Shown here in pieces: positions 1 through 45,747 of a stretch of DNA of 53,868 nt (position 1 is its first letter; every line of letters begins with the position of its first letter). Origin of the DNA: a virus (lineage: Duplodnaviria > Caudoviricetes). A program made the translations under genes and the position numbers. The stretch covers positions 1-53,868 of the IMG/VR virus record IMGVR_UViG_3300022200_008215; one strand, given 5' to 3'. The notes below the pieces were generated by a model, which was given only the letters and a program-made list of their open reading frames with translations, had not been told where the DNA came from and searched no databases.

Positions 1-330
1 TTCATTTGCTGATGCAGATACGTGTGTAGAGGTAGCTGGGTCATAAGCACCTGATACAATCCTAGTAACTAGTACTGAGCCTCCTCCTTGTTGAAAGTAG
101 TTTTTTACTGCTAGCGAAGTCATGAATTCATAACTTGTAGAGGCTGATGTAAATGTAACTCCAAATTTTCTAACATAATCGTTATATGAAGTAACCAATG
201 TTGGAGTTTCTACCGGTCCTTTAACTGTCGGTCCAATAATTGCTGCACCTGCTACTACTGGAGCTGGTTGGATAAATGAAATGTCATTTTCTCTTGTGAA
301 TACACCTGGAGAGATAATTGATTCTGCCAT
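1..330 (-). CDS. Tail sheath protein, N-terminal part (truncated by window edge)
   Basis: Manual translation from ATG at 330: MAESIISPGVFTRENDISFIQPAPVVAGAAIIGPTVKGPVETPTLVTSYNDYVRKFG..., the typical SPGV..E.D / GP..KGP / FG sheath N-terminus; not in the ORF track. Confidence 0.9.
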   Translation of the reverse strand, partial: MAESIISPGVFTRENDISFIQPAPVVAGAAIIGPTVKGPVETPTLVTSYNDYVRKFGVTFTSASTSYEFMTSLAVKNYFQQGGGSVLVTRIVSGAYDPATSTHVSASANE

Positions 331-360
331 GTCTTGATAAGGTTTTTATTTAATGTCTTT

Positions 361-426
361 TATAAATATCTGATTATTTTGTAAACCTTCCTTTATGTTT
401 CTTAGGAAGGTGACTGTGTATAAATA
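361..426 (-). promoter_or_regulatory. Two tandem TATTTATA putative late promoters upstream of the tail sheath gene
   Basis: tataaata on + at 361-368 and 419-426; each has GAAGGTTT exactly 14 nt upstream on the minus strand. Confidence 0.65.
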
Positions 427-496
427 GGAAGAGAAGGGGCAAACCTTCTCCTTTTCCTTTAACTTTCTTCTCGACTGTCTTATACTTTCCTGTAAG

Positions 497-763
497 TTAC
501 TTTTTGGTATTAGTTATCTCAGGTATGAATTCTCCTTTTTGTAAATTAATAGAACCTTTCCCATAAGCCTCCTCTAAGGAGCTAACCAACTCTCTTTCTG
601 CTCTACGAGTATCTTCTAAATAGTTTATCGCATTATCCCGACGTTTTTTTAAATCTAATTTTACCAATTCAACTTGCCCTAGTTCAACCTGTACTGCTTG
701 TATTCTAGATTCGATGTTAACAATTTTATCAATTTCTTCTTTTTTTAACTTTTTGTTTGCCAT
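497..763 (-). CDS. Small coiled-coil hypothetical protein
   Basis: 88 aa ORF, heptad-like helix followed by YGKGSINLQKGEF. Confidence 0.7.
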   Translation of the reverse strand: MANKKLKKEEIDKIVNIESRIQAVQVELGQVELVKLDLKKRRDNAINYLEDTRRAERELVSSLEEAYGKGSINLQKGEFIPEITNTKK

Positions 764-788
764 TTTATAAATATGTTTAGTGTATATC

Positions 789-820
789 CTAATGTATGAA
801 ATTATTTTTTAAAATCCAAC
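789..820 (-). promoter_or_regulatory. Bacteroidota sigma70-type promoter
   Basis: minus strand GTTG-N20-TACATTAG, same spacing as five other copies. Confidence 0.5.
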
Positions 821-1992
821 TTCTCTAATTTAGGGAACGGGATAATGTACGGTATACCTAGGTGTTTTGTCTTCTCTATAATAATATCTGCAAAATTCCA
901 AGCAAATATAAGGATAGCTTCTGGTTTATCCTCTATGAGATGTTTTGGTGGTAATATTGGTATTTTACCATTTGCTGTCCATTTATTAAACCTCTCTGGT
1001 GATTCGTCTATAATATACTTTATTAGTGTTTGATCTAAATCTAGCAAGCTAGTCACTACATTAGCTCTACCTGAAGCTCCGTAACCTGCTATTTCTAAAT
1101 GTTTATTTTCTTGTAGGTAGTCGTATAACTGTTTTAGAGCTGTTGAGATACTTTTATTAAAATTAGAAAGATCTAGGTAGGGTTTCTCTTTTTTTATTTG
1201 GTTCAACACTTTCTGACTACTTTTTCCTGTTCCTATAACTACTCTTATCGACCCAGAATGAATAGGGATTCTTTCAAAATTTAAGATAGTTAATCCATGT
1301 GTTTTAAATAAGTTTTGAAGGCTTGTTAGGGTATAGTAGTATAGGTGTTCGTGATACATAAAGTCAAACTGAAATTTCTCTATTAGGTCAACTAAGTATT
1401 GTACTTCTATAATAAGTTTCCCTCTTGGTTTTAGTCCTATCTTTATCCCTTCTATTACCTCTTGAATATCTTCTATATGAGCAAAAGAATTACTAGAAAG
1501 TATATAGTCAAAGCAGTTATTCAGTGAGTTCTCTTTAATAAAATTACTATTAAAAAAATCATCTACGATAAGAAGATCTTTGTCTCTACCTAACTTTATA
1601 ATATTTGTTGCTGGGTCTACCCCTAGTGCTGTAATTCCTTTTTCTTTAAGAGCATAAAGCAAAGGCCCGTCATTACATCCAAATTCTAAAATAATATCCC
1701 TGGAGTCTATATTCTCTTTTTCTACTAACCAGTTTGCATACTGATTAAAATGTTTTTGCATACTGATAGAGGAAATATATCTGTAGTCTTTAAATAACTC
1801 TTCTGGGTTAATTAGGTAATTAGTTTGAACTAGTTTACAGTTTTCGCACATTATTACTGTAAGAGGGTACTTTGCTACTTTTCCTGGGGTTGTAGGGAAG
1901 CTACCGGCAAGAGGTACTTCTCCAAAATTATAAACTTGGCTGAAGTCTGTTCCGTTACAGCTTGCGCAGTTATCTCTCTTGTGGTTATGCAT
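802..1992 (-). CDS. SAM-dependent NDP-sugar C-methyltransferase-like protein
   Basis: N-terminal CxxC...CxxC Zn site, PLAGSF, EFGCNDG SAM motif, GVDPA, FAHI, YHEHLYYY, HSGSIR, GYGASGRA, FAWNFADII, IIPFP. Confidence 0.9.
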   Translation of the reverse strand: MHNHKRDNCASCNGTDFSQVYNFGEVPLAGSFPTTPGKVAKYPLTVIMCENCKLVQTNYLINPEELFKDYRYISSISMQKHFNQYANWLVEKENIDSRDIILEFGCNDGPLLYALKEKGITALGVDPATNIIKLGRDKDLLIVDDFFNSNFIKENSLNNCFDYILSSNSFAHIEDIQEVIEGIKIGLKPRGKLIIEVQYLVDLIEKFQFDFMYHEHLYYYTLTSLQNLFKTHGLTILNFERIPIHSGSIRVVIGTGKSSQKVLNQIKKEKPYLDLSNFNKSISTALKQLYDYLQENKHLEIAGYGASGRANVVTSLLDLDQTLIKYIIDESPERFNKWTANGKIPILPPKHLIEDKPEAILIFAWNFADIIIEKTKHLGIPYIIPFPKLEKLDFKK

Positions 1993-2941
1993 AGTTGATA
2001 GTGGTAAAAGTTTCTGTGGTGTAAGCTGTGGTTAAATCAAAATACTTGTTATTATAGGTATACCCTATAGAAGTTATTTCTGGGAGATTTTGTATTATAT
2101 CTGTTTCTATTAGGATTTCTTGATCATTTATATTTAAAGTTAGTCCCTGTGCTTTGTTATCATATATTACAATTCTGGGCGTAAAGGAGTTTGTATCTAT
2201 TCTCCTATGTGTGTTATTATTCTGTAAAAATATTTTAAATTCTGGATGTTCACTTTTATTGAAAAGTTTTGGATATTCAAAATTAGCTTTATCCTTGATA
2301 GGCTTTTCTATAATAAGATAATCAAAAATTGAAACCATATGCTCCCAATACTGTTCTACATCTCTATACTTTCCATTCTTGACGGACATATGTGTATCGC
2401 ATGTATATTCATCTTTTAGTAAGTTTGGTATAAGTCTCTGTAGAGAATGTTTAGAAAGTATATTAATCATAAGACTAGGAAACCTATATCCTTGAGGGTG
2501 TTCGTTATCCTGTACTTTACTACATACCAAATCTGCTGGCTCTCTTAACTCGTGTAAGATTTCTTTAGTAAACTCTATATCGTAGTTAATAAACGAATAG
2601 TGAGTGTAATCTAGAGGTAGAGTTAATTTTGAAGCATTTATAATTTGATTTATAACTGTCCATCCATAGTCAGGTGCGATATTTTGGAGTTTAATGCTTT
2701 GCCCTGCTACTTCTATATACTTCCAGTGTACCATTCCTCGAATCGGGAATGTAATTATAGGATTACTCTTATCGTATATAAAATAGTCTATTAGGTTTTG
2801 AATTTCTACATTAACCGGGATATGAGATACAACAAGTATATCGTGATTACTTTGCTTGAGAATAAGTATATTTTCTTTAAGAATCTCTTCTTTTTCAGGA
2901 GTATTGCAGTGACACAGTAGTATAATTAAGTTATTTCTCAT
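1985..2941 (-). CDS. Hypothetical protein, possibly glycosyltransferase-related
   Basis: 318 aa ORF overlapping both glyco-gene neighbours; VSHIPV, DYFIYDKSNP, INYD motifs; function uncertain. Confidence 0.5.
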   Translation of the reverse strand: MRNNLIILLCHCNTPEKEEILKENILILKQSNHDILVVSHIPVNVEIQNLIDYFIYDKSNPIITFPIRGMVHWKYIEVAGQSIKLQNIAPDYGWTVINQIINASKLTLPLDYTHYSFINYDIEFTKEILHELREPADLVCSKVQDNEHPQGYRFPSLMINILSKHSLQRLIPNLLKDEYTCDTHMSVKNGKYRDVEQYWEHMVSIFDYLIIEKPIKDKANFEYPKLFNKSEHPEFKIFLQNNNTHRRIDTNSFTPRIVIYDNKAQGLTLNINDQEILIETDIIQNLPEITSIGYTYNNKYFDLTTAYTTETFTTINYA

Positions 2942-5900
2942 AACAGGCTATAAATGGAGTAATATCTTTTGATTCTTGATATCTTTGGATATCTTCGTAT
3001 TCTATATAATTTGTATTAGTGTTGTTACTTTTAAACCAGTCTCCGTTATTATTAAGAAGCTGGTCTATAATTTTTTTCTCCGATCTATATAATTTAAGAA
3101 TTTCTTTTTTCTTATCCAAGATATCTTTTGTTAATTTTTTTTCCGATTTACCGAATACATGCAGTATATCGTCTAAGATACCTTTATTAATATACTGTTT
3201 AATAAAGTTAAATACCGATCTATGTTGTGGATGTCCGTATTCCCCTATAGGGTTATGAGTAACTATTTTTTCCCAGTTTCTGCTTAGCAGAGTACATTCA
3301 ATATTGTAGACTTCTTCAGTTGAATATATACTATCCTCATAATCGTATATCTCCCAAGCACCTACTTTAAGTTCTTTCATTACTTTTTTAAACTCCTTAC
3401 TCCTTATCTTATTCGACTTATTAGTTAGGCATATTACCTTGTATTCTGGTCCATGTTTGATTAATTCTCCTCCTCCAAATATCATTTCATCATCTGGGTG
3501 TGCAATTATCATTAGTTTGCTTATTTGATAGTTCTCAAATGCTTTTTGTAGTGTATTAGCGTCTTTTTTCTTTATGGAAGGATCTGGTCCGTGAATAAAG
3601 TAGGGTTCTAGTTCATACTCATCGTACATAACATCAAATCCTTGTTTTAAAAAGTAATCAGATACGTTCCTCTCTTCTTTACTACTATAAAAATTATTCC
3701 AAGTAACCGGTAAGTAGGCAGTCTTATTTTCTAACCATAAGATACTGTTTGCAACTCTTTCTTCAGAAAATGCATTATCATCTACATATATCTTTATGCT
3801 GTAGTTGTTTAATTCTTTATTCCACTCTAAACATTGTTCAAAAAACGGCTTACTCCTTTTATCATAAAAATAGAAGCCTGTAGCAATTATCCTTTCATTA
3901 GGATTACGTTCTATTTTTTTTATATCTGCCAGCTCTACTCCATACGCACCAGTTAACTTTAAGTTGCCGTGTTTTTTCCACTGATTTATATCCTTATGAT
4001 AGTATCTCATAAAGAGAGGATAATCTTGCAGGAGAGTTATATGTTTAAGAGATTTGTCTATGTGTTGAGTTACAAAGGCATCCCCGTCTAGCCATGCATA
4101 GGTACTATAACCTTCCTTTAGTGATTGTATACTCGCAATATACTTAGCAAAATAGATAGAAAAGTCCTTATTAAATAAATCCGGTTCTCCTTGTTGTATT
4201 GGAGTAGGCTTTTTTCTGTAGTCTATTCTCCTATTGATAACATTAGGAAGATCAATAGTAGAATCACAATTGAACCCATATACAATTAACTTGTGTTTCG
4301 AGTATTTTAAAAGACTTATTGCTAGAACCTCTATCATTTTTAAATACTCCTCATCTCCTCCTGTAATCCAGGTGAAGCTGTTCGACTCTATTTTATTTAA
4401 TATACTAAGTGTATTATTATAGACCTGCTCTACTGTGATTGATTTTTGACATATATGCTGCAGATCAGTTCCCCGATGTCTTGGACACCAGTTCCAGTCT
4501 CCTGCATCAAATACATACTTCTTATCTACCCAGCAGTTATTACATACTGATTTATTTTCTACCTTGGTCAAATTAGTAGCAAATTCATATCCAAACGGAA
4601 TGAAATTGTTAATCATTAAGGTGTGTTTTCCTAACGCCCAATTCATCCAGGATAGTCCAGAGCCTAGTCCAATGAACAGTTCTGCATGATGCAAATAGTT
4701 CCACGTTTCTTCCCAGTTTAATTTCTCTTTATTAATAATACAAGGTCCTTGAAATCCCTCATATGATAAGTTAACTACTTTATACCCGTCCTTATGTAAC
4801 TTTTTTGCAAGAGCTCTCCATGATTCATGTGTCCACTCTTTTAACCCGGCTGTAGATCTGGGACCGATACATATGTACTTTTGTTTAATAGGCCGTTCTT
4901 TAGGGGTAAAATTGATACCGTAGTTCACTTCCCTATAAGGGAGTCCTAGTATGTCAGTTGCTGTTTGGATTAATGGAACTGTATTTGCCTGATTAGGATT
5001 TTTACTTCCAGTATCCCATTTATTATCTGTCTTAAACCAACCTACCCTGTAGTGTGCATAAGCAGGGCAAGGGGTATTAGGTTCTATAAACGTTATATCC
5101 TTATATGCTTCTAGTCCTTCAAACCATTCGTTATGGAAAGTAGAAACTACAATATCGCAATTATTTTTCTTTTTGAATTCTGCAACCTGAGGCATCCAGG
5201 CAATAGTATCCCCCACTGATTTAGAATCAAAGGATACTTTTACTTTCCTATTTTCAAGAGCGAATTGATGTATTACCTCTCCATCTACCTTTATAGTCCA
5301 TGGAATATAAAATTCTTTCTTACATTTTGTCCACATTCCATTTTTTATGGTAGAGGAATGTACTATTTCATTATTTGTTGAATTTATAAACTCTACAAAG
5401 TACTCTCTGTTTCGTTCTCCTGTTATCTCTACCTTAGGTCCGTACTCGAAGGAGACTTCTATAGTATTGTTGGGCAATTCTCTATATAGTTTAGTTAGTT
5501 CTTTATTAGCAAGCTGTGCTGCATTATCCCATGTAAATTGTTCTCTAATTAATTCAGATTCTTGTAACGCTTTTTCTCTATACGTGCTGTAATTTGTATA
5601 GACTTCCCTCATGACCTTCTTTAAGTCTTCAAAGTCGGGTTCATAAAATTCTCCTTCCATAAGGTGTCGGTGGAATGAATTGTATTCTCCAAACTGTGCT
5701 GGTACAACTTCTTTAATTTTAACTGGGTGTCCTTTCCCTTGGGCAAATTCAAGTTGTCCACTGCAGTTCGAATAAATCGAAGGAGTGCCGCATGCCATAG
5801 CTTCTATGAGCGGCAAATTCCATCCTTCAGATCTAGCACAAGATAAAAATACATGACCTTTTTGTAGGTACTTAATATATTCTTCACTAGTAGGAAAGTG

Positions 5901-6677
5901 TTTTACTTTTACTCTCGAATCTTTCAGATTATAGTTTTCTAATCTCTCTTCTGTAGAAGTGAATCCATCTTTGGCAAAACTATTATCGACTGATACAATT
6001 AAATCAACTGGTTCCTCCTTGCTAAATTCCTGTAAAAATGATTCTATTATTTCTTTAGTTGCTTTTCTGTAATCCCATCTTCCGAATAAGATAAACTTAA
6101 ATCTACTATCTTCATATTCCGGTAGAGTAGAAGTACTATCTGGTTTAAATATCGAGCTATCTACTGCTTCAGGGATTACCTTTACTTTACTAGGATTAAT
6201 GCCTTGTTCGATAGTACATTCTCTCTGCCAATTCGAAGCAACCCATATTTGATTATATTCCTTTAGTTTCTCAAAAAACTGCTTTGGTTGACGGGTGGTC
6301 TCCCATACATTGTAAGCTACCTTAACTCCTGTATACTCTTGGTAGAAGTAGTGGTGGTCGGTTTCATTCAATACAATATTGATATCGTGATCAATACTAT
6401 TTTCGAAATCCGTATAGATGGGGAAGTGGTGTATTTGATTTTTATCATCCCATAGTGTTTGTTCATATAGGAGAGTTTTATCTAGGGTATCTATATAGTG
6501 TTCATTATCGTGGGGAGTATCGGTATACCCATTCCATTTCGATCCTATAGTAAAATTACGTACTTTTATTGGAAGGTATTTTGATAGTGCTCTGAAAAAG
6601 TTACGAGTATGGTTATTGTACCCTGTTGTTCCTATATAGCTACCGTGAGCAAAGATATTAGGCTTTTTGCTACCCAT
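2931..6677 (-). CDS. Multidomain glycosyltransferase: GT4 + Aah/TibC-like O-heptosyltransferase + GT-A-like domain + PIG-L/LmbE-like deacetylase
   Basis: GRWDYRK and SEGWNLPLIEAMACGTP (GT4); SKSVGDTIAWMP, FIGLGSGLSWMNWALGK, CNNCW..WCP..C (heptosyltransferase with 4-Cys finger); WLDGD; IIAHPDDE and HNPIGEYGHPQH (PIG-L). Confidence 0.88.
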   Translation of the reverse strand: MGSKKPNIFAHGSYIGTTGYNNHTRNFFRALSKYLPIKVRNFTIGSKWNGYTDTPHDNEHYIDTLDKTLLYEQTLWDDKNQIHHFPIYTDFENSIDHDINIVLNETDHHYFYQEYTGVKVAYNVWETTRQPKQFFEKLKEYNQIWVASNWQRECTIEQGINPSKVKVIPEAVDSSIFKPDSTSTLPEYEDSRFKFILFGRWDYRKATKEIIESFLQEFSKEEPVDLIVSVDNSFAKDGFTSTEERLENYNLKDSRVKVKHFPTSEEYIKYLQKGHVFLSCARSEGWNLPLIEAMACGTPSIYSNCSGQLEFAQGKGHPVKIKEVVPAQFGEYNSFHRHLMEGEFYEPDFEDLKKVMREVYTNYSTYREKALQESELIREQFTWDNAAQLANKELTKLYRELPNNTIEVSFEYGPKVEITGERNREYFVEFINSTNNEIVHSSTIKNGMWTKCKKEFYIPWTIKVDGEVIHQFALENRKVKVSFDSKSVGDTIAWMPQVAEFKKKNNCDIVVSTFHNEWFEGLEAYKDITFIEPNTPCPAYAHYRVGWFKTDNKWDTGSKNPNQANTVPLIQTATDILGLPYREVNYGINFTPKERPIKQKYICIGPRSTAGLKEWTHESWRALAKKLHKDGYKVVNLSYEGFQGPCIINKEKLNWEETWNYLHHAELFIGLGSGLSWMNWALGKHTLMINNFIPFGYEFATNLTKVENKSVCNNCWVDKKYVFDAGDWNWCPRHRGTDLQHICQKSITVEQVYNNTLSILNKIESNSFTWITGGDEEYLKMIEVLAISLLKYSKHKLIVYGFNCDSTIDLPNVINRRIDYRKKPTPIQQGEPDLFNKDFSIYFAKYIASIQSLKEGYSTYAWLDGDAFVTQHIDKSLKHITLLQDYPLFMRYYHKDINQWKKHGNLKLTGAYGVELADIKKIERNPNERIIATGFYFYDKRSKPFFEQCLEWNKELNNYSIKIYVDDNAFSEERVANSILWLENKTAYLPVTWNNFYSSKEERNVSDYFLKQGFDVMYDEYELEPYFIHGPDPSIKKKDANTLQKAFENYQISKLMIIAHPDDEMIFGGGELIKHGPEYKVICLTNKSNKIRSKEFKKVMKELKVGAWEIYDYEDSIYSTEEVYNIECTLLSRNWEKIVTHNPIGEYGHPQHRSVFNFIKQYINKGILDDILHVFGKSEKKLTKDILDKKKEILKLYRSEKKIIDQLLNNNGDWFKSNNTNTNYIEYEDIQRYQESKDITPFIACYEK

Positions 6678-6695
6678 TTTACTTTATTTTTACAA

Positions 6696-6727
6696 CCAAT
6701 ATATGAATTTATTCTGTATAATCCAAA
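6696..6727 (-). promoter_or_regulatory. Bacteroidota sigma70-type promoter for the glycosylation cassette
   Basis: minus strand TTTG-N20-TATATTGG just upstream of ATG 6677. Confidence 0.6.
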
Positions 6728-6757
6728 TATACTTTATAGTCCATACGGGAATTGCCT

Positions 6758-6786
6758 AAAAAAGAAAAGGCCCTAGTGGACCTTTT
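6758..6786 (-). terminator. Intrinsic terminator
   Basis: AAAAGGTCC-ACTA-GGGCCTTTT followed by CTTTTTT on the minus strand. Confidence 0.75.
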
Positions 6787-6788
6787 GC

Positions 6789-6962
6789 TTATTCGAGTGT
6801 TCTTATATGGTTTGATACTTTTTTGAATACTGTGTAGAATGTTTCGAATTCTTCTCCTTTGTATGTTGCTGATCTTAGTTTAACTAAGATAAATTCACAC
6901 TCTTTTTTCGTCAACCCTTCTTCTTCTACTTTCTTAGGTTTAATTTTATCTATTAATCCCAT
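6789..6962 (-). CDS. Small hypothetical protein (57 aa)
   Basis: Manual translation MGLIDKIKPKKVEEEGLTKKECEFILVKLRSATYKGEEFETFYTVFKKVSNHIRTLE; fills the gap before the terminator. Confidence 0.7.
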   Translation of the reverse strand: MGLIDKIKPKKVEEEGLTKKECEFILVKLRSATYKGEEFETFYTVFKKVSNHIRTLE

Positions 6963-6991
6963 ATTTTTTTATAACTGATTAATTTATATTC

Positions 6992-7843
6992 TTATACGTA
7001 GATAAAGATATCTCCACTCTCTACTCTAATGTTTCCTACGTGATCTGCTTTTGCTGTTGCTGCATTTACTTCTGTTCCTTCAAATACACCAGCGATATGG
7101 TAAGATGGAACTTGGTTTCCAATAGCGGTGGAAGCCATAGATCCAACTATCGCAAGACGTCCATCGTTCGAGTTATAGCTTGCATCCCAAATCATTGCTG
7201 ATCCTGATTGAGCTACACCTGTTGAACCACCAAATACAATTCCCGAATCTTGGGTTGCTGCTGATCCAGAACTTAGTAATACGAATTGATCTTCTATGTC
7301 AAGGTTTGTTGTGTTAATGGATGTTGTTGTCCCATTTACTGTTAGGTCTCCACCAATTGTTGTATCATTTGTAATAATAAGTCCACTAAAAGTAGGAGTA
7401 TCAGTTGTTTGCAGTCCTAAATCTACCGATGCTGCTGCTACGCCGTTTGTTGTAAGCCTTGCTTCCCCCTGATTCGGTGAATCTAATGATGATCCGGAAA
7501 CTACTAATGTTCCTAATAAGATAGTTGCAGCTGAAATTGAACCTCCAAGAGATGTTGATGTTCCTGCTATCGTTATTGCAGAATTAGCTAAACTAGCATT
7601 AGGAACTGCGGATAAACCGAAAGTAAGTGTATCGGTACCTGCATCTGCTGATATTGTTAATCCTTGTGCAGATGATGAAGCAAAGTTTAATACACCTTGA
7701 CTATCGTTTGCTATAATATTTACTCCGTTAAATGAAGCAGTTACGAATGCGTTGAGTGATGTTGCTGAGGTTAGATATCCTGCGTCGTTTACTAACTCGG
7801 ATACGTTAGATCCGGATACTATTATTTTTTTCCAAGTTGCCAT
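6992..7843 (-). CDS. Putative virion structural / fibre-like protein
   Basis: Ser/Thr/Gly/Ala-rich; GDLTVNGTTTSINTTNLDIEDQF fibre-type motif; MATWKKIIVSGS start resembles MPNWRKVITSGS of 41562-43913. Confidence 0.65.
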   Translation of the reverse strand: MATWKKIIVSGSNVSELVNDAGYLTSATSLNAFVTASFNGVNIIANDSQGVLNFASSSAQGLTISADAGTDTLTFGLSAVPNASLANSAITIAGTSTSLGGSISAATILLGTLVVSGSSLDSPNQGEARLTTNGVAAASVDLGLQTTDTPTFSGLIITNDTTIGGDLTVNGTTTSINTTNLDIEDQFVLLSSGSAATQDSGIVFGGSTGVAQSGSAMIWDASYNSNDGRLAIVGSMASTAIGNQVPSYHIAGVFEGTEVNAATAKADHVGNIRVESGDIFIYV

Positions 7844-7885
7844 GTTTCTTTACTTTATCTATTTCTTTATTTTTTATAAATAGGT

Positions 7886-8284
7886 TTAATTATTAAAACC
7901 GAGATAGAAATTATCATCATTACTAAGGTATAGTCCTCCTGTTATTGGTGTTGGCTCTCCCGACTGTGATACTATCTGTAGTATCCCCTGTGTATTTACT
8001 TTTAGTTTTTCAGAACCTCCTATACTTATTGTAAATTCATCTTCAATTCCATCTAATTCTATAAATAATGACCCTGTAATTTGTAAATCATTTGTAGTCG
8101 TCCAATATGACCCTGTTTCTTTAAATATTCCCGAGTGTTCTTCTATTATAGTGAGTATATCTATATTATCTAAAGTTAAGCCTCCCGAGATATTAAACGA
8201 GCCGGATAAATTAAGAGAACCTGTTAGGTGCTCTCCTAACTCTGGTAATGTATCTACTATTTGCTCCCAAAATACTTGTGCCAT
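7886..8284 (-). CDS. Hypothetical structural protein
   Basis: 132 aa with TGSLNLSGS / LQITGSL repeats like neighbouring fibre genes. Confidence 0.55.
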   Translation of the reverse strand: MAQVFWEQIVDTLPELGEHLTGSLNLSGSFNISGGLTLDNIDILTIIEEHSGIFKETGSYWTTTNDLQITGSLFIELDGIEDEFTISIGGSEKLKVNTQGILQIVSQSGEPTPITGGLYLSNDDNFYLGFNN

Positions 8285-9543
8285 TATACTATAAATTTAC
8301 CTGCTGCTACTATTTCCATCTGTTCTGTTATACTATATCCTAGTTCTGCATTAAATACTATTACAACATTCGATCCTACTTGAGATATAGATACTATGGC
8401 TGATGGTTCTGTCATTAATCCATTAATAAACACTTTAAAGTCATTAACTCCTAGTGCTGGGAATCCTGTTGGTGGTACTGCTATTGCGATATTAGTGAAT
8501 GTAATACTGTTATCTTCTGTATTTATCGTATTAGTTATTGTGTTGCTGTCTAGAAGTGCTGTTAGACTGATATAATCTCTCTCTTCTTCAGACATATTGC
8601 TTGTTACGTTTGTTATCTCTGTCTTTCCTGCTATTGCATCAAAGAATCTACCTTTTGGGTTTGCAGAAGCCTGTGTAGCTGCTTTTGCATTAAGTATCTC
8701 AGTTGTTCCAGCTAATTCTAATCCAAAGGTAATTGCTGATTTAGAATAAAATTTATTCATATTAGCTATCGATGTATTAATTGCATCTGGTACTATATGT
8801 CCCATCATAGTGATATTAAAAGAGGTCTTAACTGTTCTATCCTGTCCTTGGTTTAGTTCTGTTGAGGTAGTGTAGGTATCAATCATTGCTCGGAAACTAA
8901 ACCTCTCTGGATCACCCCAGTATGCATCTGAGGCGAAATTAATAGATTCTACAATTTTATTCATCTGTTCTACATACTCTGTAAAGATAATACATGAATA
9001 TGTTATGTTTACATAGTCAGGTATAATGACTCCGTATAGCTCTGTTACAGGAATCCTATTTGTAAGTGCTGCAAAGTTATCATATATGTTTTTTCTAGAG
9101 TACTTCTTTTGAAATATTGCAAAATTATTAGGGTTATTAGCGTCTAGCTTGTTTCCTAACGTTCTATTCTTTTCAATAGACTCTCTTTTAAACATAATAA
9201 GGGGAGTCTGTATTTTACCGTTTTTATCTCGGTAAAACCCGTCTTTTTGTACTGATGCCCACCTTTCTGGTGATCCGTACAGTATAGGTACAGCTATTCT
9301 CTTACCGTTCTGAGATACTGATGGTTTTATTACGTTATTAAAGTAGTATACAATGGTTTCGTCTATATCTTTTAATCCGATACTAAATTGCTTAACAGTA
9401 TCTCCTTTGACAGAGCGGTTATATGCACGATTCTTCTTAAGATCATCGGGTGTTGGCTGTTTTGCAGCATTATTATACGTATCTATGGAGTCTTGTGATA
9501 ATTCCGACTGTTTTTTAGGTACTATTTTACTACTATTTGCCAT
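8284..9543 (-). CDS. Tail terminator / sheath stabiliser-like protein (T4 gp15-like) with C-terminal extension
   Basis: VPILYGSPERW, PLIMFKR, QMNKIVE motifs; follows neck genes. Confidence 0.6.
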   Translation of the reverse strand: MANSSKIVPKKQSELSQDSIDTYNNAAKQPTPDDLKKNRAYNRSVKGDTVKQFSIGLKDIDETIVYYFNNVIKPSVSQNGKRIAVPILYGSPERWASVQKDGFYRDKNGKIQTPLIMFKRESIEKNRTLGNKLDANNPNNFAIFQKKYSRKNIYDNFAALTNRIPVTELYGVIIPDYVNITYSCIIFTEYVEQMNKIVESINFASDAYWGDPERFSFRAMIDTYTTSTELNQGQDRTVKTSFNITMMGHIVPDAINTSIANMNKFYSKSAITFGLELAGTTEILNAKAATQASANPKGRFFDAIAGKTEITNVTSNMSEEERDYISLTALLDSNTITNTINTEDNSITFTNIAIAVPPTGFPALGVNDFKVFINGLMTEPSAIVSISQVGSNVVIVFNAELGYSITEQMEIVAAGKFIV

Positions 9544-9544
9544 A

Positions 9545-36513: not shown

Positions 36514-38076
36514 TTATGTTATTTGTACCCAAGTACTGTCTGGATTAAAGTATATTATATTATTACCATCATCTATCATATTTCCTACAAGTCTAACTAT
36601 ATTACCACTCCCACTAGGAACAGCTGTTTGTAAATCACCAGCAGTAGTAGAAACATATAAATTATTTCCTTTTCCTGTTTGTGTAAATACAGAACTCTTA
36701 GCCCAACCTCTTAAAAGTATCCCATTACTAGATGCAGTGCCCATAGCAATACCTAACATTTTTGTTCCGTATGTTGCATTGTTTGCGGAAGCTCTAAACC
36801 ACCCAGAATTCAGTCCTGCTGTAGTAAATACAATTAAATCCCCTTCTGCTATTGTACCATTAGTAGTATAAAAAGTTCCATAAAATGTAACTTCACCAGA
36901 ATTATCGGGAGTACCAGTAATTCCTGAGTCATATACTAGATATGAACCTTCATCAAATTGTAAGTATTTTCCAGTAAATGTTAAGGCTGATTCTACTTGT
37001 AGATTATTAGTGGCGTTGATATAAGTTAAGACACCGTTAGCAGTTGTACCAGTAATGCTTCCTGCAAAAGAACTGCCTGAAGTGCCACTTGTACCAGATG
37101 TTCCTGATGATCCTGAAGTACCAGAGGAACCGGAAGTACCGTTTATTCCTGAAGTTCCTGATGAACCTGAGTTACCTGAAGTACCAGAGGAACCGGAAGT
37201 ACCGTTTATTCCTGATGTTCCTGATGAACCTGAGTTACCTGAAGAACCTGATGTTCCGTCTATACCTGAAGTACCAGAGGAACCGGAAGTACCGTTTATT
37301 CCTGAAGTTCCTGATGAACCTGAGTTACCTGAAGTTCCTGATGAACCTGAGTTACCTGAAGTTCCTGATGAACCTGAAGTTCCTGAAGTACCGTTTATAC
37401 CTGAAGTTCCTGATGAACCTGAGTTACCTGAAGTTCCTGATGAACCTGAAGTTCCTGAAGTACCGTTTATTCCTGAAGTTCCTGATGAACCTGAGTTACC
37501 TGAAGTTCCTGATGAACCTGAAGTTCCTGAAGTACCGTTTATTCCTGAAGTTCCTGATGAACCTGAGTTACCGGAAGAACCTGATGAACCTGAAGATCCC
37601 GAAGAACCGGAAGAGCCTGAAGTACCTGAAGAACCTGAAGAACCGGAAGAGCCTGAAGTTCCGGAAGTGCCTGAAGTAGCGGCTGCTTCTTTAGTTCCTA
37701 CTTTTCCGTTACTGTCTATGACTAGTACAGTATCATCAGCTATAGCAGTTAAGTTTGGTAGTTTTAAATCTGATCCGGATACAATTAGTGCTAGTGCACC
37801 AAAGGTTCCCATAGTTACAGTGTTGTCTGCAAATGCTTCTATTACCGGAAGTCCGGCTATGGTATTTACCGAGAATAAAGAATCAGATAAATCATCGTCT
37901 ATTGAAAATAATCTTCCGTTATTTCCATCTACTGCAAATATGTTGGTTCTTCCTTCTGATCCGGAACCCTGTAAAACGATTGATCCTGATACATCTTGTG
38001 TTATGGTCTCTACGTAGTTCAAAGAACTGGTAAAGGACATAATACTTGATCCTGGGGTTATTCTAATATCTGCCAT
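36514..38076 (-). CDS. Fibre-like virion protein with Gly-X-Y (Ser/Thr) repeat region
   Basis: About 200 aa of SGT/SGS/SGN/SGI/NGT triplets between globular domains. Confidence 0.75.
   Translation of the reverse strand: MADIRITPGSSIMSFTSSLNYVETITQDVSGSIVLQGSGSEGRTNIFAVDGNNGRLFSIDDDLSDSLFSVNTIAGLPVIEAFADNTVTMGTFGALALIVSGSDLKLPNLTAIADDTVLVIDSNGKVGTKEAAATSGTSGTSGSSGSSGSSGTSGSSGSSGSSGSSGSSGNSGSSGTSGINGTSGTSGSSGTSGNSGSSGTSGINGTSGTSGSSGTSGNSGSSGTSGINGTSGTSGSSGTSGNSGSSGTSGNSGSSGTSGINGTSGSSGTSGIDGTSGSSGNSGSSGTSGINGTSGSSGTSGNSGSSGTSGINGTSGSSGTSGSSGTSGTSGTSGSSFAGSITGTTANGVLTYINATNNLQVESALTFTGKYLQFDEGSYLVYDSGITGTPDNSGEVTFYGTFYTTNGTIAEGDLIVFTTAGLNSGWFRASANNATYGTKMLGIAMGTASSNGILLRGWAKSSVFTQTGKGNNLYVSTTAGDLQTAVPSGSGNIVRLVGNMIDDGNNIIYFNPDSTWVQIT
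37072..37678 (-). repeat. Coding low-complexity repeat (9-bp units with higher-order 72-bp unit)
   Basis: cctgaagtt/cctgatgaa units; 24-codon unit SGSSGTSGNSGSSGTSGINGTSGT repeated about three times. Confidence 0.9.
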
Positions 38077-39736: not shown

Positions 39737-39737
39737 A

Positions 39738-40913: not shown

Positions 40914-40914
40914 A

Positions 40915-41562
40915 TTATAGTCCGAATCTTGTTTTAGTTGCGTTATAGTTTTGGAGTATTTCTTGTGCTGATAATGTTCGGTTATATATTTGCACTGTTG
41001 ATATTTTCCCATCAAATAAGTTAGAAGAATCTGTATAAGCTGCTATTCTAACCGCAGTACCTCCTGTAAATGTTGCTGTACTTGAACTAGTATTTACTAA
41101 ATTTCCGTTTAGGTATAATTTCCAACCTGATGTTGTATTAAAAGTAACTGCACCGCACCACCATTTTCCTGTCATCACTCCTGCATTATAAGCAACTGTA
41201 CTCCAAGAACCATTATGTCCCGCTTGTAAAGTAGTGTTGGTTCCAGCCATCCAAAAAGCGTGTTGTCCGTCACCACCTCCACTAATAATATTATTAGTAT
41301 TACCGTCCGGGTTAAACCATGCTATTTTGGTGTAAGACGTTGTTGAGAGCGACACGCTACTTAATTGACACCAGTCGTTGCTTCCATCAAATACAATACT
41401 TCTGTCTGAGTAAGAAGGCCCATTTATTAAAGTTCCATTATTCCCATTCCCGCTTACATCATTCCAAACCGTCCCTGATCCTGGATATGAATTTCTATCA
41501 GCAGCATCTAGATTAAGTATCAATCCGTCCCTAACTATTTTTGGTCCATGAATTTCAGCCAT
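40915..41562 (-). CDS. LamG/concanavalin-A-like virion protein
   Basis: GLILNLDAA..SYPGSGTVWNDVSGNGNNGTL, FDGSND, YNRTLSAQEILQNY. Confidence 0.85.
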   Translation of the reverse strand: MAEIHGPKIVRDGLILNLDAADRNSYPGSGTVWNDVSGNGNNGTLINGPSYSDRSIVFDGSNDWCQLSSVSLSTTSYTKIAWFNPDGNTNNIISGGGDGQHAFWMAGTNTTLQAGHNGSWSTVAYNAGVMTGKWWCGAVTFNTTSGWKLYLNGNLVNTSSSTATFTGGTAVRIAAYTDSSNLFDGKISTVQIYNRTLSAQEILQNYNATKTRFGL

Positions 41563-43913
41563 TACTTATCAAATTCTGTAACTAGTTTTTCTATATCTTT
41601 TCTTTCAGCAAATACTGAGTAGTAGCAGTCTATTGATGTTTTAGATCCTACTATAATACCGTTTGAGGTTACTTTTTCAACCCATAAATCTTGTTTCTTC
41701 CCTATTGAAGTTAAGTTTACAGTAGTTGTATTCTGGTCTACTAGAGCATGCCAGTGATCTGGTAATACAATGGTATTCTCATTGGTTAACCTTCCTCTTA
41801 CGTATACTGAATGTTCTGGTCCCTCTAATACTCCGTATTGAAGTTTTTTACCTTGTTTGGTTGGGTGATCAATAATAAATGATTTTACAGTTGCTGTAAG
41901 TGTTCCTGTTACATTTAAAATTGAACCGTCAAATGTTAAGTTTGATTCTACCGTACCTGTTCCATCACCATCATAGGTTATAACTCCATTTGTAGTTGTT
42001 CCTGTTAATGGAAGTATCCCACTGGTACCTGATGATCCGGAAGAACCTGATGAGCCTGAAGTTCCTGAAGAACCTGATGAGCCTGAAGATCCGGAAGTAC
42101 CGTCTATACCTGAAGTTCCTGAAGAACCTGAGTTACCGGAAGAACCTGATGAACCGGAAGATCCGGAAGTACCGTTTATACCTGAAGTTCCTGAAGAACC
42201 TGAGTTACCGGAAGAACCTGATGATCCGGAAGATCCGGAAGTACCGTCTATACCTGAAGTTCCTGAAGAACCTGAGGTACCTGAAGAACCTGATGAACCG
42301 GAAGAACCTGATGTTCCATCTATACCTGAAGTTCCTGAAGAACCTGAGTTACCGGAAGAACCTGATGAACCGGAAGATCCGGAAGTACCGTTTATACCTG
42401 AAGTTCCTGAAGAACCTGAGCTACCTGAAGAACCGGATGAACCGGAAGAACCTGATGTTCCATCTATACCTGAAGTTCCTGAAGAACCTGAGTTACCGGA
42501 AGAACCTGATGATCCGGAAGATCCGGAAGTACCGTCTATACCTGAAGTTCCTGAAGAACCGGAGGAACCGGAAGAACCGGAGGAACCGGAAGAACCTGAT
42601 GTTCCATCTATACCTGAAGTTCCTGAAGAACCTGATGTTCCATCTATACCTGAAGTTCCTGAAGAACCTGATGAACCGGAAGAACCAGAGGAGCCGGAAG
42701 AACCGGAGGAACCGGAAGAACCTGATGTTCCATCTATACCTGAAGTTCCTGAAGAACCTGAGGAACCGGAAGAACCTGATGAACCGGAAGAGCCTGATGA
42801 TCCGGAAGAACCTGATGTTCCTGAAGAACCTGATGTTCCATCTATACCTGAAGTTCCTGAAGAACCTGAGGTACCTGAAGAACCTGATGAGCCTGAAGTA
42901 CCGTCAGTACCACTTGATCCTGAAGAGCCTGAAGTTCCAGATGTACCGGCAATTTGTCCAACAGACGTTATGACGTAAGAATAATTTGAACTACCTTCAG
43001 TATAAAATATAACATCACGTGATGGTGCATCTAAATTAGTTAAATAAATTCTACAAATCATTCTATTCGTAGGGTCTATTGAAATTGTTGTTAATACAAT
43101 ATCAACGTCTACTTGCCCTGGATTAACTGCATCTACATAAGGTATTTTAAAAATATTTGAAGATATTGAAGAACCTATCGGAGTACCTGAAGAATCTGTC
43201 AATTGTATTTCAACGTAAGCTTCAACATCCGCATTTGCTGCTGGTAATAAACAATATACAATAAAATTTTGAAAACCAGCTGGTATAATTGAATAACCAA
43301 GCTCTGGTGATAAAAATGATTCAACCAAAACATCAGATGCACTACCACTTAAAGATGTTAATTTTGTTACTTCACCAGTTGTTGTTGGTACCAAACTTAA
43401 TTCTTTATAACCAGAAATATCTGAATTTATACTTTCATTAAAATAATATATTTGACCTCTAGATATACCGTCAACTCCGCTAGAACCTGATGAGCCAGAG
43501 CTTCCGCTTGTACCATCTGTACCGGATGTTCCATCTGTCCCGCTAGTACCATTAGTTCCTGAACTACCTGAAGTACCGTTGGTTCCACTAGTTCCGTTTG
43601 TGCCTGATGTTCCTGAAGAACCGGAAGTACCTGACGACCCCGAAGTTCCACTTGATCCTGAAGAGCCGGAAGTACCGTCTATACCTGAAGTGCCAGAGGT
43701 AGCTGCTGCTTCTTTAGTTCCTATATTACCGCTTGCATCTACTACCAGGACTGTATCATCAGCTATGGCCGGTAGATTTGTAAGTTGTAAGTTTGAGCCA
43801 GTTATACTATTTGTTATATTGATTGAACCTGTTAGTTCAATATAATCTGTTATACGGAGAGAATTTAACACAGCGTCAGATCCGCTGGTTATAACTTTAC
43901 GCCAATTAGGCAT
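41562..43913 (-). CDS. Fibre-like virion protein with two Gly-X-Y (Ser/Thr) repeat regions
   Basis: SGS/SGT/GID triplet tracts; C-terminal KSFIIDHP...LEGPE..VYVRG...AERKD fibre-type domain. Confidence 0.78.
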   Translation of the reverse strand: MPNWRKVITSGSDAVLNSLRITDYIELTGSINITNSITGSNLQLTNLPAIADDTVLVVDASGNIGTKEAAATSGTSGIDGTSGSSGSSGTSGSSGTSGSSGTSGTNGTSGTNGTSGSSGTNGTSGTDGTSGTDGTSGSSGSSGSSGVDGISRGQIYYFNESINSDISGYKELSLVPTTTGEVTKLTSLSGSASDVLVESFLSPELGYSIIPAGFQNFIVYCLLPAANADVEAYVEIQLTDSSGTPIGSSISSNIFKIPYVDAVNPGQVDVDIVLTTISIDPTNRMICRIYLTNLDAPSRDVIFYTEGSSNYSYVITSVGQIAGTSGTSGSSGSSGTDGTSGSSGSSGTSGSSGTSGIDGTSGSSGTSGSSGSSGSSGSSGSSGSSGSSGTSGIDGTSGSSGSSGSSGSSGSSGSSGSSGTSGIDGTSGSSGTSGIDGTSGSSGSSGSSGSSGSSGTSGIDGTSGSSGSSGSSGNSGSSGTSGIDGTSGSSGSSGSSGSSGSSGTSGINGTSGSSGSSGSSGNSGSSGTSGIDGTSGSSGSSGSSGTSGSSGTSGIDGTSGSSGSSGSSGNSGSSGTSGINGTSGSSGSSGSSGNSGSSGTSGIDGTSGSSGSSGSSGTSGSSGSSGSSGTSGILPLTGTTTNGVITYDGDGTGTVESNLTFDGSILNVTGTLTATVKSFIIDHPTKQGKKLQYGVLEGPEHSVYVRGRLTNENTIVLPDHWHALVDQNTTTVNLTSIGKKQDLWVEKVTSNGIIVGSKTSIDCYYSVFAERKDIEKLVTEFDK
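42020..42945 (-). repeat. Coding low-complexity repeat (SGS/SGT/GID triplets)
   Basis: About 300 codons of 9-bp units; second shorter tract at about 43470-43700. Confidence 0.9.
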
Positions 43914-44280
43914 TTGCTACCTCCTTTCTTACTTTACAGTTATTAAAGTGCCATCTTAACATAGCATTTTTTTGCCCTTCTTCTAAACAGTGGGGGCATT
44001 TTGCCCGTAAGTGATTGCCTGTAAAGTTATCACCTCTGTTTAATGCTGATTTTCTCATTTTTTCTCTAGATTCTTCACTTCTAGGTGGGGCAGCTAATCT
44101 AGCTCGTCTAATGGCTTGTTTATGTTTAGCTGTAAGTAAAACGAGATTGAAGGTGTCGTCGGAGCCTCCTAGACTTTTTGGGATAATGTGATGACTCTCA
44201 TAATATGTAGAATCATTTCTGTGTCTTCTAAGAGATTGTCTTCCAGAGCAGAGCGCTCTGCAGTGTTCCATGTAGTTCAT
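43906..44280 (-). pseudogene. HNH homing endonuclease remnant, apparently internally deleted, with NUMOD3-like tail
   Basis: YYESHHIIPKSLGGSDDTFNLVLLTA runs straight into KHKQAIR..SEESREKMR..CPHC; expected REHxxxH segment absent. Confidence 0.6.
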
Positions 44281-44395: not shown

Positions 44396-44872
44396 TTACT
44401 CAAAAAAATCTTTTCTATAAAATTTACCTAGGATGTTATCATTGATGTAGTTGTCTCTATTTTCTAATACCTCTTTTGTAAACAGGTACTTACATTCGAA
44501 GTATGTCAATCTTTTCTTATCTTGAACGTATTTTAATATTTCTCTTTTAAAGTCTTCTTTTTTACCTTCTTTTACTAATTCTAAGATTTCTTTTTGAGAT
44601 CCGTGATAAGTTTTCCAATCCGACTCTGTTATTACTTTCTTTTTTAAAGGTGTTCTCCCCCCTACTCCTTTGCTTTTTCTCTCCTCTTTGAGAGTTTCTA
44701 ACTCTTTTTTACCTAACCTCTTACTTCTTTCAAAATAAAGTACTTTTTTACCTATGTACTTTTTCCCTGTCGGTATGTGAGTTACTTCGTAAATAAACCC
44801 GTAAGTATCTTCTGGTATACTTTCTATGTTAGTTACAGGATTTCCTTGGTATATCCATAATTTTTCTGTCAT
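44396..44872 (-). CDS. GIY-YIG-like nuclease-domain protein
   Basis: YGFIYEVT..TGKKYIGKK, WKTYHGS, FKREIL, YFE, YINDNI. Confidence 0.75.
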   Translation of the reverse strand: MTEKLWIYQGNPVTNIESIPEDTYGFIYEVTHIPTGKKYIGKKVLYFERSKRLGKKELETLKEERKSKGVGGRTPLKKKVITESDWKTYHGSQKEILELVKEGKKEDFKREILKYVQDKKRLTYFECKYLFTKEVLENRDNYINDNILGKFYRKDFFE

Positions 44873-45747
44873 GATTTTAGTGATTTTATAATTTGATCAT
44901 CGTCAAAGACATCTTCTTGTTTGAAATACGCGCATGAGGAGATATCTTGAGATAGTGCAAATGGTTGATATAAGTTTTTTTGAAAATCAACCTGTAGTGT
45001 AAATTGATTTGCTTTAATATTTTTATGTAAAGTATATCCGTATATTTCTGGTTTAGTGGTGATCCAGCAAACTGTTGATGGTAGAGCAAAGGATGCTGCT
45101 AAGTGTTGGGAGAAAGAATCAATAAGAAGCCTTTTTTCTGCAAGTTGGAGAAGGATTGCTATGCTTCTAAATCCGTCTAGTGCCTGTAAAGTGTTTGGGT
45201 ATATTTTTTGATCTTTTCTTTTTATATGTACTATCGAGTAATCATCTTTAAACTCCTCTATAACTCTCAATACAGTTGATTCTGGTATATCTCTTGTCCA
45301 AGAGTAATTATATTCTTGACCTACTGGACCTCCGTTTGGTTGGATTGCTAGTATTGGTTTTTCTGTTTTATAGAAAGGTCTAAAGTAATCTATTTCTGCT
45401 TGTGTAAGGTATATTTGAGGAGCTTCTCCATTATATTTTAACTCCCACTGCTTGCACCATATATTTAATAAATGATCTTGTTCTAAGATAAAATCCGTAT
45501 GTGTGTAAGGATCTGTAAAATATAGCTTACAATCTGCTTCTCTGTTGTAGATATATGTTTTATAGAAAGGTCCATGTTCTCCGTTTTGATGAACGTAGTC
45601 TACTGCTGGGTTGTGTTTAAATACATCTGGGTAGTTGCATACTACATGTATTATATCTTTAGGATGTGCTTTCCTAATTACTTTTAAAATAGCTGTTGCT
45701 AGTATATGCTTACCTAATCCTCCATCTATGTGAAATACTACTGTCAT
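44869..45747 (-). CDS. Glycosyltransferase family 9-like (heptosyltransferase fold)
   Basis: GGLGKHIL, VFKHNP, LLIDSFSQHLAA, TVCW, YGY. Confidence 0.75.
   Translation of the reverse strand: MTVVFHIDGGLGKHILATAILKVIRKAHPKDIIHVVCNYPDVFKHNPAVDYVHQNGEHGPFYKTYIYNREADCKLYFTDPYTHTDFILEQDHLLNIWCKQWELKYNGEAPQIYLTQAEIDYFRPFYKTEKPILAIQPNGGPVGQEYNYSWTRDIPESTVLRVIEEFKDDYSIVHIKRKDQKIYPNTLQALDGFRSIAILLQLAEKRLLIDSFSQHLAASFALPSTVCWITTKPEIYGYTLHKNIKANQFTLQVDFQKNLYQPFALSQDISSCAYFKQEDVFDDDQIIKSLKS

Follow-up and report, generated by a model that had tools for sequence, protein, structure and literature searches.

TibC and Aah of Escherichia coli glycosylate the passengers of autotransporters. In the TibC-TibA and Aah-AIDA-I pairs, these BAHT enzymes (TIGR04414; PDB 4RAP/4RB4) act as soluble enzymes that hyper-glycosylate the serine residues of a repetitive fibrous protein before its export or assembly. 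According to PMC4358343, in TibC Asp110 is the catalytic base, Thr226 and Lys230 contact the beta-phosphate, Trp305 contacts the sugar, and Arg286 contacts the adenine N1, underlies adenosine diphosphate (ADP) specificity and is essential; Cys339, Cys342, Cys358 and Cys370 form a 1Fe-0S iron-finger, a beta-hairpin thumb (Phe265/Val266) builds the dodecamer, and the natural substrates carry Ser in the loops of beta-helical repeats. Here, we describe a related enzyme encoded by the IMG/VR virus record IMGVR_UViG_3300022200_008215 (Duplodnaviria; Caudoviricetes), which was analysed over its whole length of 53,868 bases (hereafter the window) and is estimated to be 33% complete. The enzyme belongs to a three-gene cassette. 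We consider it rather probable, from sequence comparisons, that the substrates of this cassette are collagen-like tail fibres of the phage itself, whose proline-free (Gly-Ser/Thr-Ser)n repeats it would O-glycosylate on Ser.

Glycosylated collagen-like proteins are known from the Bacillus exosporium (BclA), from the worm cuticle, whose collagen is galactosylated on Thr, and from Mimivirus. They consist of Gly-X-Y repeats poor in or without hydroxyproline and carry O-glycans on Ser/Thr (or hydroxylysine), which in some cases stabilise the helix. To our knowledge, none of these three systems uses a TibC-like enzyme, other transferase families being at work there. The repeats of the window differ from those collagens in consisting almost purely of Gly-Ser/Thr-Ser and in being entirely free of Pro. 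Among viral enzymes, A064R of the chlorovirus PBCV-1 is a multidomain glycosyltransferase with a methyltransferase domain. It resembles the enzyme described here in that a single viral polypeptide would join several glycan-building activities for a structural protein, but it comes from a eukaryotic virus, has unrelated domains and acts on the capsid protein. Phage virions can also be glycosylated: as far as Freeman et al. 2023 is described in PMC12619734, glycosyltransferases encoded by mycobacteriophages near their structural genes decorate the C-termini of capsid and tail-tube subunits. The present cassette shares with that case phage-encoded glycosyltransferases placed near structural genes, but differs in its enzyme family (BAHT-like), its proposed acceptor (a collagen-like fibre) and its host group.

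A TibC-like domain within a four-domain phage enzyme

The largest gene of the cassette encodes a 1248-residue protein made of four domains (Table 1). The second domain matched TIGR04414 (E 2.1e-63) over residues 404-755 and model positions 10-370 of 374, with 214.5 bits for a cut-off of 200 and 216 bits in a second search. It also aligned to the TibC structure (PDB 4rap, E 3.3e-34). A comparison with TibC had been suggested in a preliminary description of the window made from the sequence alone, and its outcome agrees with the Aah/TibC relationship put forward there. The likeness to the E. coli enzymes covers the whole length of the domain and includes the N-terminal barrel region, the catalytic and donor residues and the iron-finger, as these are presented in PMC4358343.

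Individual residues were compared in an alignment of 141 sequences. Besides the window itself, it included two plasmid-borne bacterial members, 118 close homologues of environmental origin and, as a viral comparison set, 20 further sequences (17 enzymes from records with serine-rich collagen-like repeats, one from Microcystis phage Mel-JY01 and two from syntenic relatives of the window). The window domain is 28-30% identical to the two bacterial members. Its D490, T609, K613 and W677 correspond to TibC Asp110, Thr226, Lys230 and Trp305, while C712, C715, C731 and C743 align to Cys339, Cys342, Cys358 and Cys370; the motif previously read as a CNNC..C..C finger therefore matches the TibC iron-finger in all four cysteines. 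The catalytic Asp, the Thr/Lys pair, the Trp and the four Fe-Cys are kept in the window and in 20/20 sequences of the viral comparison set. At the position of Arg286 the window has T658. This position is occupied by a residue other than Arg in 118/118 close homologues and in 16 of the 20 viral sequences, and by Arg in both bacterial members. TibC Pro300 is replaced by G672, the Pro300/Ser294 position being Gly. In a quick tree with the two bacterial members as root, the Arg-bearing viral sequences branched off deeply and the window fell into a derived crown group; because there were only two outgroups, it is thin evidence that the window belongs to such a derived group.

Genes for ADP-heptose were searched in 23 TibC-positive viral records. 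TIGR00441 (GmhA) was matched in 1/23 and TIGR02199 (rfaE domain II) in 4/23, in no case over cut-off, and these weak matches had no visible link to which enzymes retain Arg286. Two syntenic relatives (G001, 9192-9557, and G002, 31155-31520) contain an open reading frame (ORF) of the cytidylyltransferase family with a weak rfaE domain II match (58-60 bits) and one in-frame TAA.

The domain had initially been called a heptosyltransferase. The TibC/Aah relationship stands, whereas heptose is a candidate sugar only: as the adenine-reading Arg of TibC is replaced by T658, the first sugar need not be heptose. No ADP-heptose pathway gene exceeded its cut-off in the 23 records. No autotransporter domain was found in any ORF of the window. 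The domain fails two defining BAHT features, namely Arg286 and the autotransporter partner. Since it keeps the catalytic Asp, the Thr/Lys/Trp residues and the Fe-Cys but lacks these two features, we name it a TibC relative; judging from the residues kept, it probably works like TibC as a Ser O-glycosyltransferase. In contrast to TibC and Aah, it is phage-encoded, is fused to three other enzyme domains and has no adjacent autotransporter, and its likely acceptor would be a proline-free collagen-like repeat, whereas that of TibC is a beta-helix. That it acts, like TibC and Aah, as a soluble enzyme on a repetitive fibrous protein before assembly is what we infer for the phage enzyme.

In an E. 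coli plasmid locus (L331), a TIGR04414-family enzyme is followed by an AIDA-repeat protein. On the Gluconobacter plasmid NZ_CP068421.1 (L332, 5869-9583), a bacterial enzyme annotated as TIGR04414 is followed by a Hint-domain protein, which is not an autotransporter; in bacteria too, the family may have partners other than autotransporters.

Association of TibC-like enzymes with serine collagen-like repeats

Two genes of the window encode collagen-like tail fibres. The 783-residue fibre contains 130 Gly-X-Y triplets, with Ser at Y in 110 of them and Ser (65) or Thr (46) at X, and the 520-residue fibre contains 67, with Ser at Y in 60; no triplet of either has Pro. Taken together, the two fibres have 197 triplets and 259 Ser, with Ser at Y in 170 triplets, Ser or Thr at X in 164 and Pro in 0.

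IMG/VR was scanned for eight or more consecutive Gly-[ST]-[ST]-type codon triplets. The 80 loci listed, of at least 157 stretches, lie on 66 contigs, 59 of which were searchable; 45 IMG/VR records with eight Gly-Pro-X triplets served as a control set. Among the matches listed, TIGR04414 was found in 18/59 Ser-repeat records (16/59 over cut-off; 5/8 of the records at least 90% complete) and in 1/45 control records, this single record also carrying a Ser repeat (Fisher p = 1.8e-4). When records of at least 30 kb were considered, the same domain was found, again among the matches listed, in 14/34 Ser-repeat and 1/17 control records (p = 0.01). Co-occurrence with Ser/Gly repeat genes, which the preliminary description had proposed to look for across phage genomes, was thus indeed observed.

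The 17 enzymes from Ser-repeat records have a median identity of 39%, none exceeding 63%, and at such a median do not represent one clone. A GT4 domain lies in the same ORF as the TibC-like domain in 14 of them. By coordinate subtraction, the enzyme and the repeat are at most 5 kb apart in 7 of the 18 records, at most 10 kb in 10 and at most 17 kb in 15, and this includes records of 249, 299 and 548 kb. Together, these results show a statistical and physical linkage of TibC-like enzymes to Ser-collagen genes.

Related loci and isolates

Relatives of the 318-residue protein of the cassette led to 73 loci in IMG/VR, several of which resemble one contig resampled. Gene and domain order there is GT4, TibC-like, GT-A, PIG-L, 318-residue protein, methyltransferase (20/73), 88-residue gene and sheath, with the tail sheath downstream of the cassette in 70/73; single domains were detected in 57-63 of the 73 loci, and the misses are at contig ends. 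Directly upstream of the fusion, a same-strand Ser-collagen run is present in 13 loci and a neck gene, as in the window, in 25. In locus L360, the fibre adjoining the same cassette is homologous to both window fibres outside the repeats (E 2e-37 and 1e-13), and is 40% identical (E 2e-37) to the C-terminal domain of the 520-residue fibre. At the protein level, the length and architecture of the 1248-residue enzyme recur in 30 other clusters (at 90% identity) with 61-77% identity, and 1883 proteins of 686-2184 residues match the fusion at E <= 1e-20.

A single conserved gene pair of GT4 and TibC-like domains was considered and rejected. The GT4 partner gene of the syntenic relatives (L003, 6926-8002) compared with domain 1 at a BLASTP E of 0.62, though Pfam calls both GT4; as this gene has no detectable homology to domain 1, GT4 plus TibC-like is regarded as a recurring pairing.

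In a set of 50,697 phage records, the TibC-like domain was present in only 4, and megablast of the cassette against the same set gave no match. Microcystis phage Mel-JY01 (L001, PP395634.1) encodes a GT4 / 318-residue-like / TibC-like fusion with a Ser-collagen ORF on each side, and all 17 repeat-pattern matches of its 190 kb lie within 1-9670. The huge phage LR756501, like its same-length twin LR756503, has 1,447 repeat matches, some of them no more than about 6 kb from the enzyme gene. The isolate with the most similar capsid protein (73% identity), phage immuto, has neither a TibC-like gene nor a Ser-collagen repeat.

The annotation of Mel-JY01 deserves a remark. At 1-3052 and 9152-9986 its plus strand contains long Gly-Ser/Thr-Ser collagen-like ORFs with ordinary non-repeat ends, for which GenBank gives minus-strand "hypothetical proteins" (1-651, 739-2298, 9361-9513 and 9491-9898); the plus-strand ORF 2-3052 continues beyond the beginning of the record, and two frames are needed to read the second fibre (9152-9986). 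At these ORFs, the wrong strand was probably annotated in the deposited record. A literature search on Mel-JY01 returned no paper. In LR756501.1, a 735-kb huge phage, a run of four Gly-Ser/Thr-Ser/Thr-type triplets was matched 1,440 times on the minus strand, at about 103,500-105,000 and beyond, which indicates that it carries very long Ser/Thr collagen-like arrays.

The other enzymes of the cassette

The first domain of the 1248-residue enzyme contains a GT4 region within residues 182-388 (PF00534, 43.1 bits for a cut-off of 26.4; PF20706, 43.9 for 26). It matches the glycosyltransferase family phrog_2170 (E 7.9e-28) and is 51% identical to the N-terminus of the Mel-JY01 fusion. An E-x7-E stretch, which we take to be the motif of GT4 glycosyltransferases, starts at residue 284. 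The third domain, formerly noted for its WLDGD motif, has no Pfam match. A model built from 20 relatives (predicted local distance difference test, pLDDT, 93.9) has a GT-A fold, and its best Foldseek matches are retaining GT8/GT6 enzymes, among them glycogenin (E 1.5e-7; template modelling, TM, score 0.40-0.48) and the ABO transferases GTA/GTB. D864 and D866 (domain residues D107/D109) are invariant among the 20 relatives. Only 80 matches to this domain were found among 1.84 billion representatives, many of them within multidomain proteins of 1000-1900 residues. The fourth domain contains AHPDDE at residue 1059 and HPQH at residue 1149; AHPDDE and HxxH are presumably the metal and catalytic motifs of PIG-L enzymes.

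The 318-residue protein has no Pfam, NCBIfam or PHROG match, in line with its earlier listing as an unknown ORF; what has changed is that a fold can now be assigned to it. It has 86 environmental homologues, and its model (pLDDT 92.8) comprises a GT-A domain and a beta-rich C-terminal part. Foldseek matched this model to glycogenin, the LH3 glycosyltransferase domain, BoGT6a and GlcAT-P at E 3e-5 to 1e-4, with TM 0.31-0.42 over the whole protein. N119, Y120 and D121 are invariant, and no classical DxD was identified. Its N-terminal part aligns inside the Mel-JY01 fusion, between the GT4 and TibC-like domains. On the strength of the model we regard it as a putative fourth glycosyltransferase of the cassette, which would in fact bring its transferase modules to four, not three.

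The last gene encodes an NDP-sugar (nucleoside diphosphate sugar) C-methyltransferase with matches to PF08421 (50.5 bits for 31.3), PF13489 (68.8 for 27) and PF08484 (87.2 for 23.5). It aligns to D-mycarose 3-C-methyltransferase (PDB 4rv9, E 6.8e-56, residues 8-376) and to TcaB9 (E 7.6e-46), so that all three domains are shared with the TylC3/TcaB9/D-mycarose enzymes (PDB 4rv9, 3ndi) in full-length matches. The known members serve actinomycete antibiotic deoxysugar pathways; the phage gene, in contrast, lies in a block of virion genes, and no 4,6-dehydratase or other pathway partner was seen in 54 kb. Kyte-Doolittle hydropathy over 19 residues reached at most 1.03 in the three cassette proteins, none of which has a membrane-like segment. 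The GT4, TibC/Aah-like, GT-A-like, PIG-L and C-methyltransferase calls of the preliminary description were right, and all catalytic motifs that could be checked are intact.

Genome context

Every long ORF of the window is on the minus strand. In its major capsid protein, the window shares 73% identity with Flavobacterium phage vB_FspM_immuto and 55% with Mel-JY01; its source is an uncultured marine myovirus of the Flavobacterium-phage-like kind. Along transcription, the order is terminase, portal, protease, capsid, PhoH, head-tail adaptor, several neck-region genes, the 283-residue fibre-like structural protein, the cassette, the 88-residue gene and the tail sheath. The three cassette genes overlap by 11 and 8 nucleotides and occupy 802-6677 between the neck genes and the tail sheath, as first described. 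PADLOC gave no defence-system match for the cassette, except a weak generic methyltransferase match. The PhoH-like gene (11509-12195, minus strand) follows the major capsid gene and precedes the adaptor gene; phage immuto has the same arrangement, with 79% identity.

Two terminator-like hairpins, read as 6786-6765 and 452-429, bracket the cassette and the 88-residue gene; their number in the region is at chance level (4 against 3.4 expected). A candidate small ORF of about 57 codons, shorter than the listed ORFs and read by eye (about 6790-6961, minus strand), fills most of the gap between the 283-residue gene and the hairpin before the cassette. The cassette had been credited with a promoter of its own, which was not borne out. 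Sigma-70-like sites number 33, with 33.5 expected by chance. TAnnTTTG, which we assume to be the Bacteroidetes-type promoter motif, occurs 47 nucleotides upstream of the ATG, but shows no enrichment: the window contains 79 copies against 65 +/- 7, and 79 is reached by 4/100 shuffles. We make no promoter claim.

Other genes lie around the fibres. The ORF just upstream of the 783-residue fibre gene resembles GT9 enzymes by eye; it has no Pfam match at E<=5 and no PDB sequence match, the Atlas clusters (Table 1) are its sole support, and its reading as a GT9 glycosyltransferase is a lead. Two homing-endonuclease genes (HNH and SegE-like GIY-YIG; 43906-44280 and 44396-44872, minus strand) lie back to back between this candidate and the 783-residue fibre gene. 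Between the two fibre genes (38432-41562, minus strand), three consecutive genes each encode a concanavalin-A-like lectin domain (Laminin_G_3, E 6e-11 to 8e-22), and their products are possible carbohydrate-binding fibre tips. Directly downstream of the 520-residue fibre gene, a 187-residue ORF (35936-36499, minus strand) has a weak match to S-adenosylmethionine methyltransferases (PF13649, 19.4 bits for a cut-off of 27).

Table 1. Coordinates of the cassette, its domains, the proposed acceptors and neighbouring features in the window.
Feature	Position	Strand	Evidence or remark
1248-residue four-domain enzyme (GT4, TibC-like, GT-A, PIG-L)	2931..6677	-	
Domain 1, GT4, GT-B fold, residues 1-400	5478..6677	-	PF00534, PF20706 and PF13692 over cut-offs
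Domain 2, TibC/Aah-like (BAHT-like) putative protein O-glycosyltransferase, residues 404-757	4407..5468	-	four-Cys iron-finger
Domain 3, GT-A fold, residues 758-1052	3522..4406	-	closest to retaining GT8/GT6; DxD D864/D866
Domain 4, PIG-L/LmbE-type de-N-acetylase, residues 1053-1248	2934..3521	-	PF02585, 48.3 bits for a cut-off of 28.2 (residues 1055-1162)
318-residue protein	1985..2941	-	
396-residue NDP-sugar 3-C-methyltransferase	802..1992	-	
783-residue collagen-like tail fibre, proposed acceptor	41562..43913	-	PF01391 Collagen, E 9.1e-55; PHROG tail-fibre families
520-residue collagen-like tail fibre, proposed acceptor	36514..38076	-	PF01391, E 7.6e-29
292-residue candidate GT9-fold glycosyltransferase	44869..45747	-	just upstream of the 783-residue fibre gene; Atlas: viral clusters with PF01075 in 32-46% of members, structural TM 0.80
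283-residue fibre-like structural protein	6992..7843	-	just upstream of the cassette
Terminator-like hairpin upstream of the cassette	6765..6786	-	9-bp stem, then T-run
88-residue protein between cassette and tail sheath	497..763	-	tblastn match in 58/73 related loci, each time between cassette and sheath; also in 6/15 loci of a further comparison set
Terminator-like hairpin between the 88-residue gene and the tail sheath gene	429..452	-	
Tail sheath N-terminus, cut by window end	1..330	-	phrog_23, E 9.2e-9; downstream border

Discussion

We propose that the cassette would operate as a late-expressed, soluble glycosylation assembly line. In the host cytoplasm, the TibC-like domain would put the first sugar on Ser hydroxyls of the fibre chains, and the glycan would then be extended by the fused GT4 and GT-A domains and by the separate 318-residue GT-A protein. 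The PIG-L domain would de-N-acetylate an N-acetyl-hexosamine to an amino sugar, possibly paired with the GT4 domain; pairs of a GT4 enzyme and a deacetylase occur in mycothiol, bacillithiol and glycosylphosphatidylinositol synthesis. The 3-C-methyltransferase would supply a branched C-methyl NDP-sugar donor to one of the transferases. Glycosylated collagens suggest, by analogy, that such a coat would stabilise the proline-free triple helix in place of proline/hydroxyproline, protect it, or tune host recognition. The absence of membrane segments from the enzymes and their place inside the structural gene block support glycosylation of the fibres, as does the linkage to Ser-collagen genes.

Several observations weigh against the fibres as acceptors. 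In the window itself, the cassette and the fibres are 30-37 kb apart, and no Ser-collagen run was found in three syntenic relatives searched whole (G001-G003, 23-34% complete). A single repeat-pattern match in G001 was discarded as a low-complexity stretch of another protein, not collagen. The TibC-like gene was not seen in 41/59 Ser-collagen records, most of which are fragments, while the huge phage LR756504 has a TibC-like gene and zero repeat-pattern matches. The survey covered the listed part of the repeat stretches, and its control records are shorter (median 21.6 against 40.7 kb); moreover, the records are phylogenetically non-independent, and shared ancestry inflates the counts. On the enzyme side, Arg286 is replaced, and the thumb region (Lys230-Arg286 equivalents) comprises 45 residues against 56 in the two bacterial members, that is, 11 fewer. 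Finally, the known TibC substrate is a beta-helix, not a collagen helix.

The preliminary description had envisaged an assembly line acting on virion proteins or, alternatively, on the host surface. Its virion part gains support from the comparisons above, in which nothing favoured the host surface, the enzymes having no membrane segment and the window no autotransporter. Within the virion, the acceptor could be the tail sheath, the 283-residue protein or the Ser/Thr/Gly-rich beta-structured fibres at 45801-49598 instead of the collagen-like fibres. We find this unlikely, even though the cassette directly precedes the sheath in the 70 related loci mentioned above and in the further compared loci that reach the sheath, and although the beta-helical repeats reported for TibC in PMC4358343 would suit such an acceptor. 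Adjacency to the sheath is ordinary synteny and no specific link, and the statistical link found is to Ser-collagen repeats. As for the 283-residue protein, it is rich in Ser (13%) and Thr (12%), contains SG[ST] motifs, and in Mel-JY01 a relative of its C-terminus is found before the fusion; but a homologue is present in immuto, which does not have the enzyme, and tblastn gave no match beside the cassette in any of the 73 loci. It is quite improbable that the enzymes act on the host during infection, on envelope proteins or glycans, for instance in a superinfection block or an altered surface. PHROG places the GT4 family in "moron, auxiliary metabolic gene and host takeover", and phage glycosyltransferases that alter the host serotype are among those covered in PMC12619734. 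However, the enzymes have no membrane segment, and neither an autotransporter nor another host-type acceptor is encoded; the cassette stands among the late structural genes of a myovirus whose 54 kb show no sign of lysogeny, and the linkage to Ser-collagen genes would go unexplained.

The same linkage would be left without explanation if the glycan were a hypermodification of phage DNA, to which we give very little credence. Sets of several glycosyltransferases that decorate DNA reportedly exist in phages (Pyle et al. 2024, as cited in PMC12619734), and base-modification genes could lie outside the record, as it is only 33% complete. No hydroxymethylase or similar gene was seen in the window, however, and the core enzyme is structurally close to a protein Ser-O-glycosyltransferase and has its protein-binding iron-finger intact. 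Hardly any credence at all can be given to synthesis of a soluble glycoside or unusual NDP-sugar, such as a glucosamine-containing small molecule of the kind made by the GT4 and PIG-L pairs of thiol cofactors. The fusion of a GT4 domain to a PIG-L deacetylase recalls those pairs, and the GT4 domain weakly matches BshA (E 1.8e-4) and MshA (E 0.048); but both matches are far below the cut-offs, such a pathway would have no use for the TibC-like domain and two more GT-A modules, and location in the structural module and linkage to fibres speak against it.

Glycosylation of the collagen-like fibres can be placed in a wider, more tentative view. It is conceivable, though on present comparisons doubtful, that many aquatic phages, from T4-like fragments of 50 kb to huge phages of 500-700 kb, build "glyco-collagen" fibres whose proline-free helices depend on dense Ser O-glycosylation. 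The first sugar would come from a viral TibC branch that does without ADP-specific recognition and uses another nucleotide sugar, and in the lineage of the present phage an amino sugar and a C-methyl branched sugar would then be added to the glycan. If so, virions would carry post-translational modifications of a new class, and collagen would be stabilised without hydroxyproline in a novel manner. A full-text literature search returned no paper linking TibC-like enzymes with phages or collagen-like fibres; PMC9146016 mentions YadA-like structural proteins only.

Public annotation pipelines label the family "autotransporter strand-loop-strand O-heptosyltransferase". Should glycosylation of the collagen-like fibres prove true, this label would, for the phage genes, probably be wrong on the substrate and perhaps also on the sugar, and a well-studied bacterial enzyme family associated with virulence would have a large unrecognised viral branch with a different class of substrate. 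Virion glycosylation, documented so far in mycobacteriophages, would then occur widely among phages from marine and freshwater habitats and would take place on the receptor-binding apparatus, and glycan-stabilised, proline-free collagen helices would be of interest to protein chemists and materials scientists.

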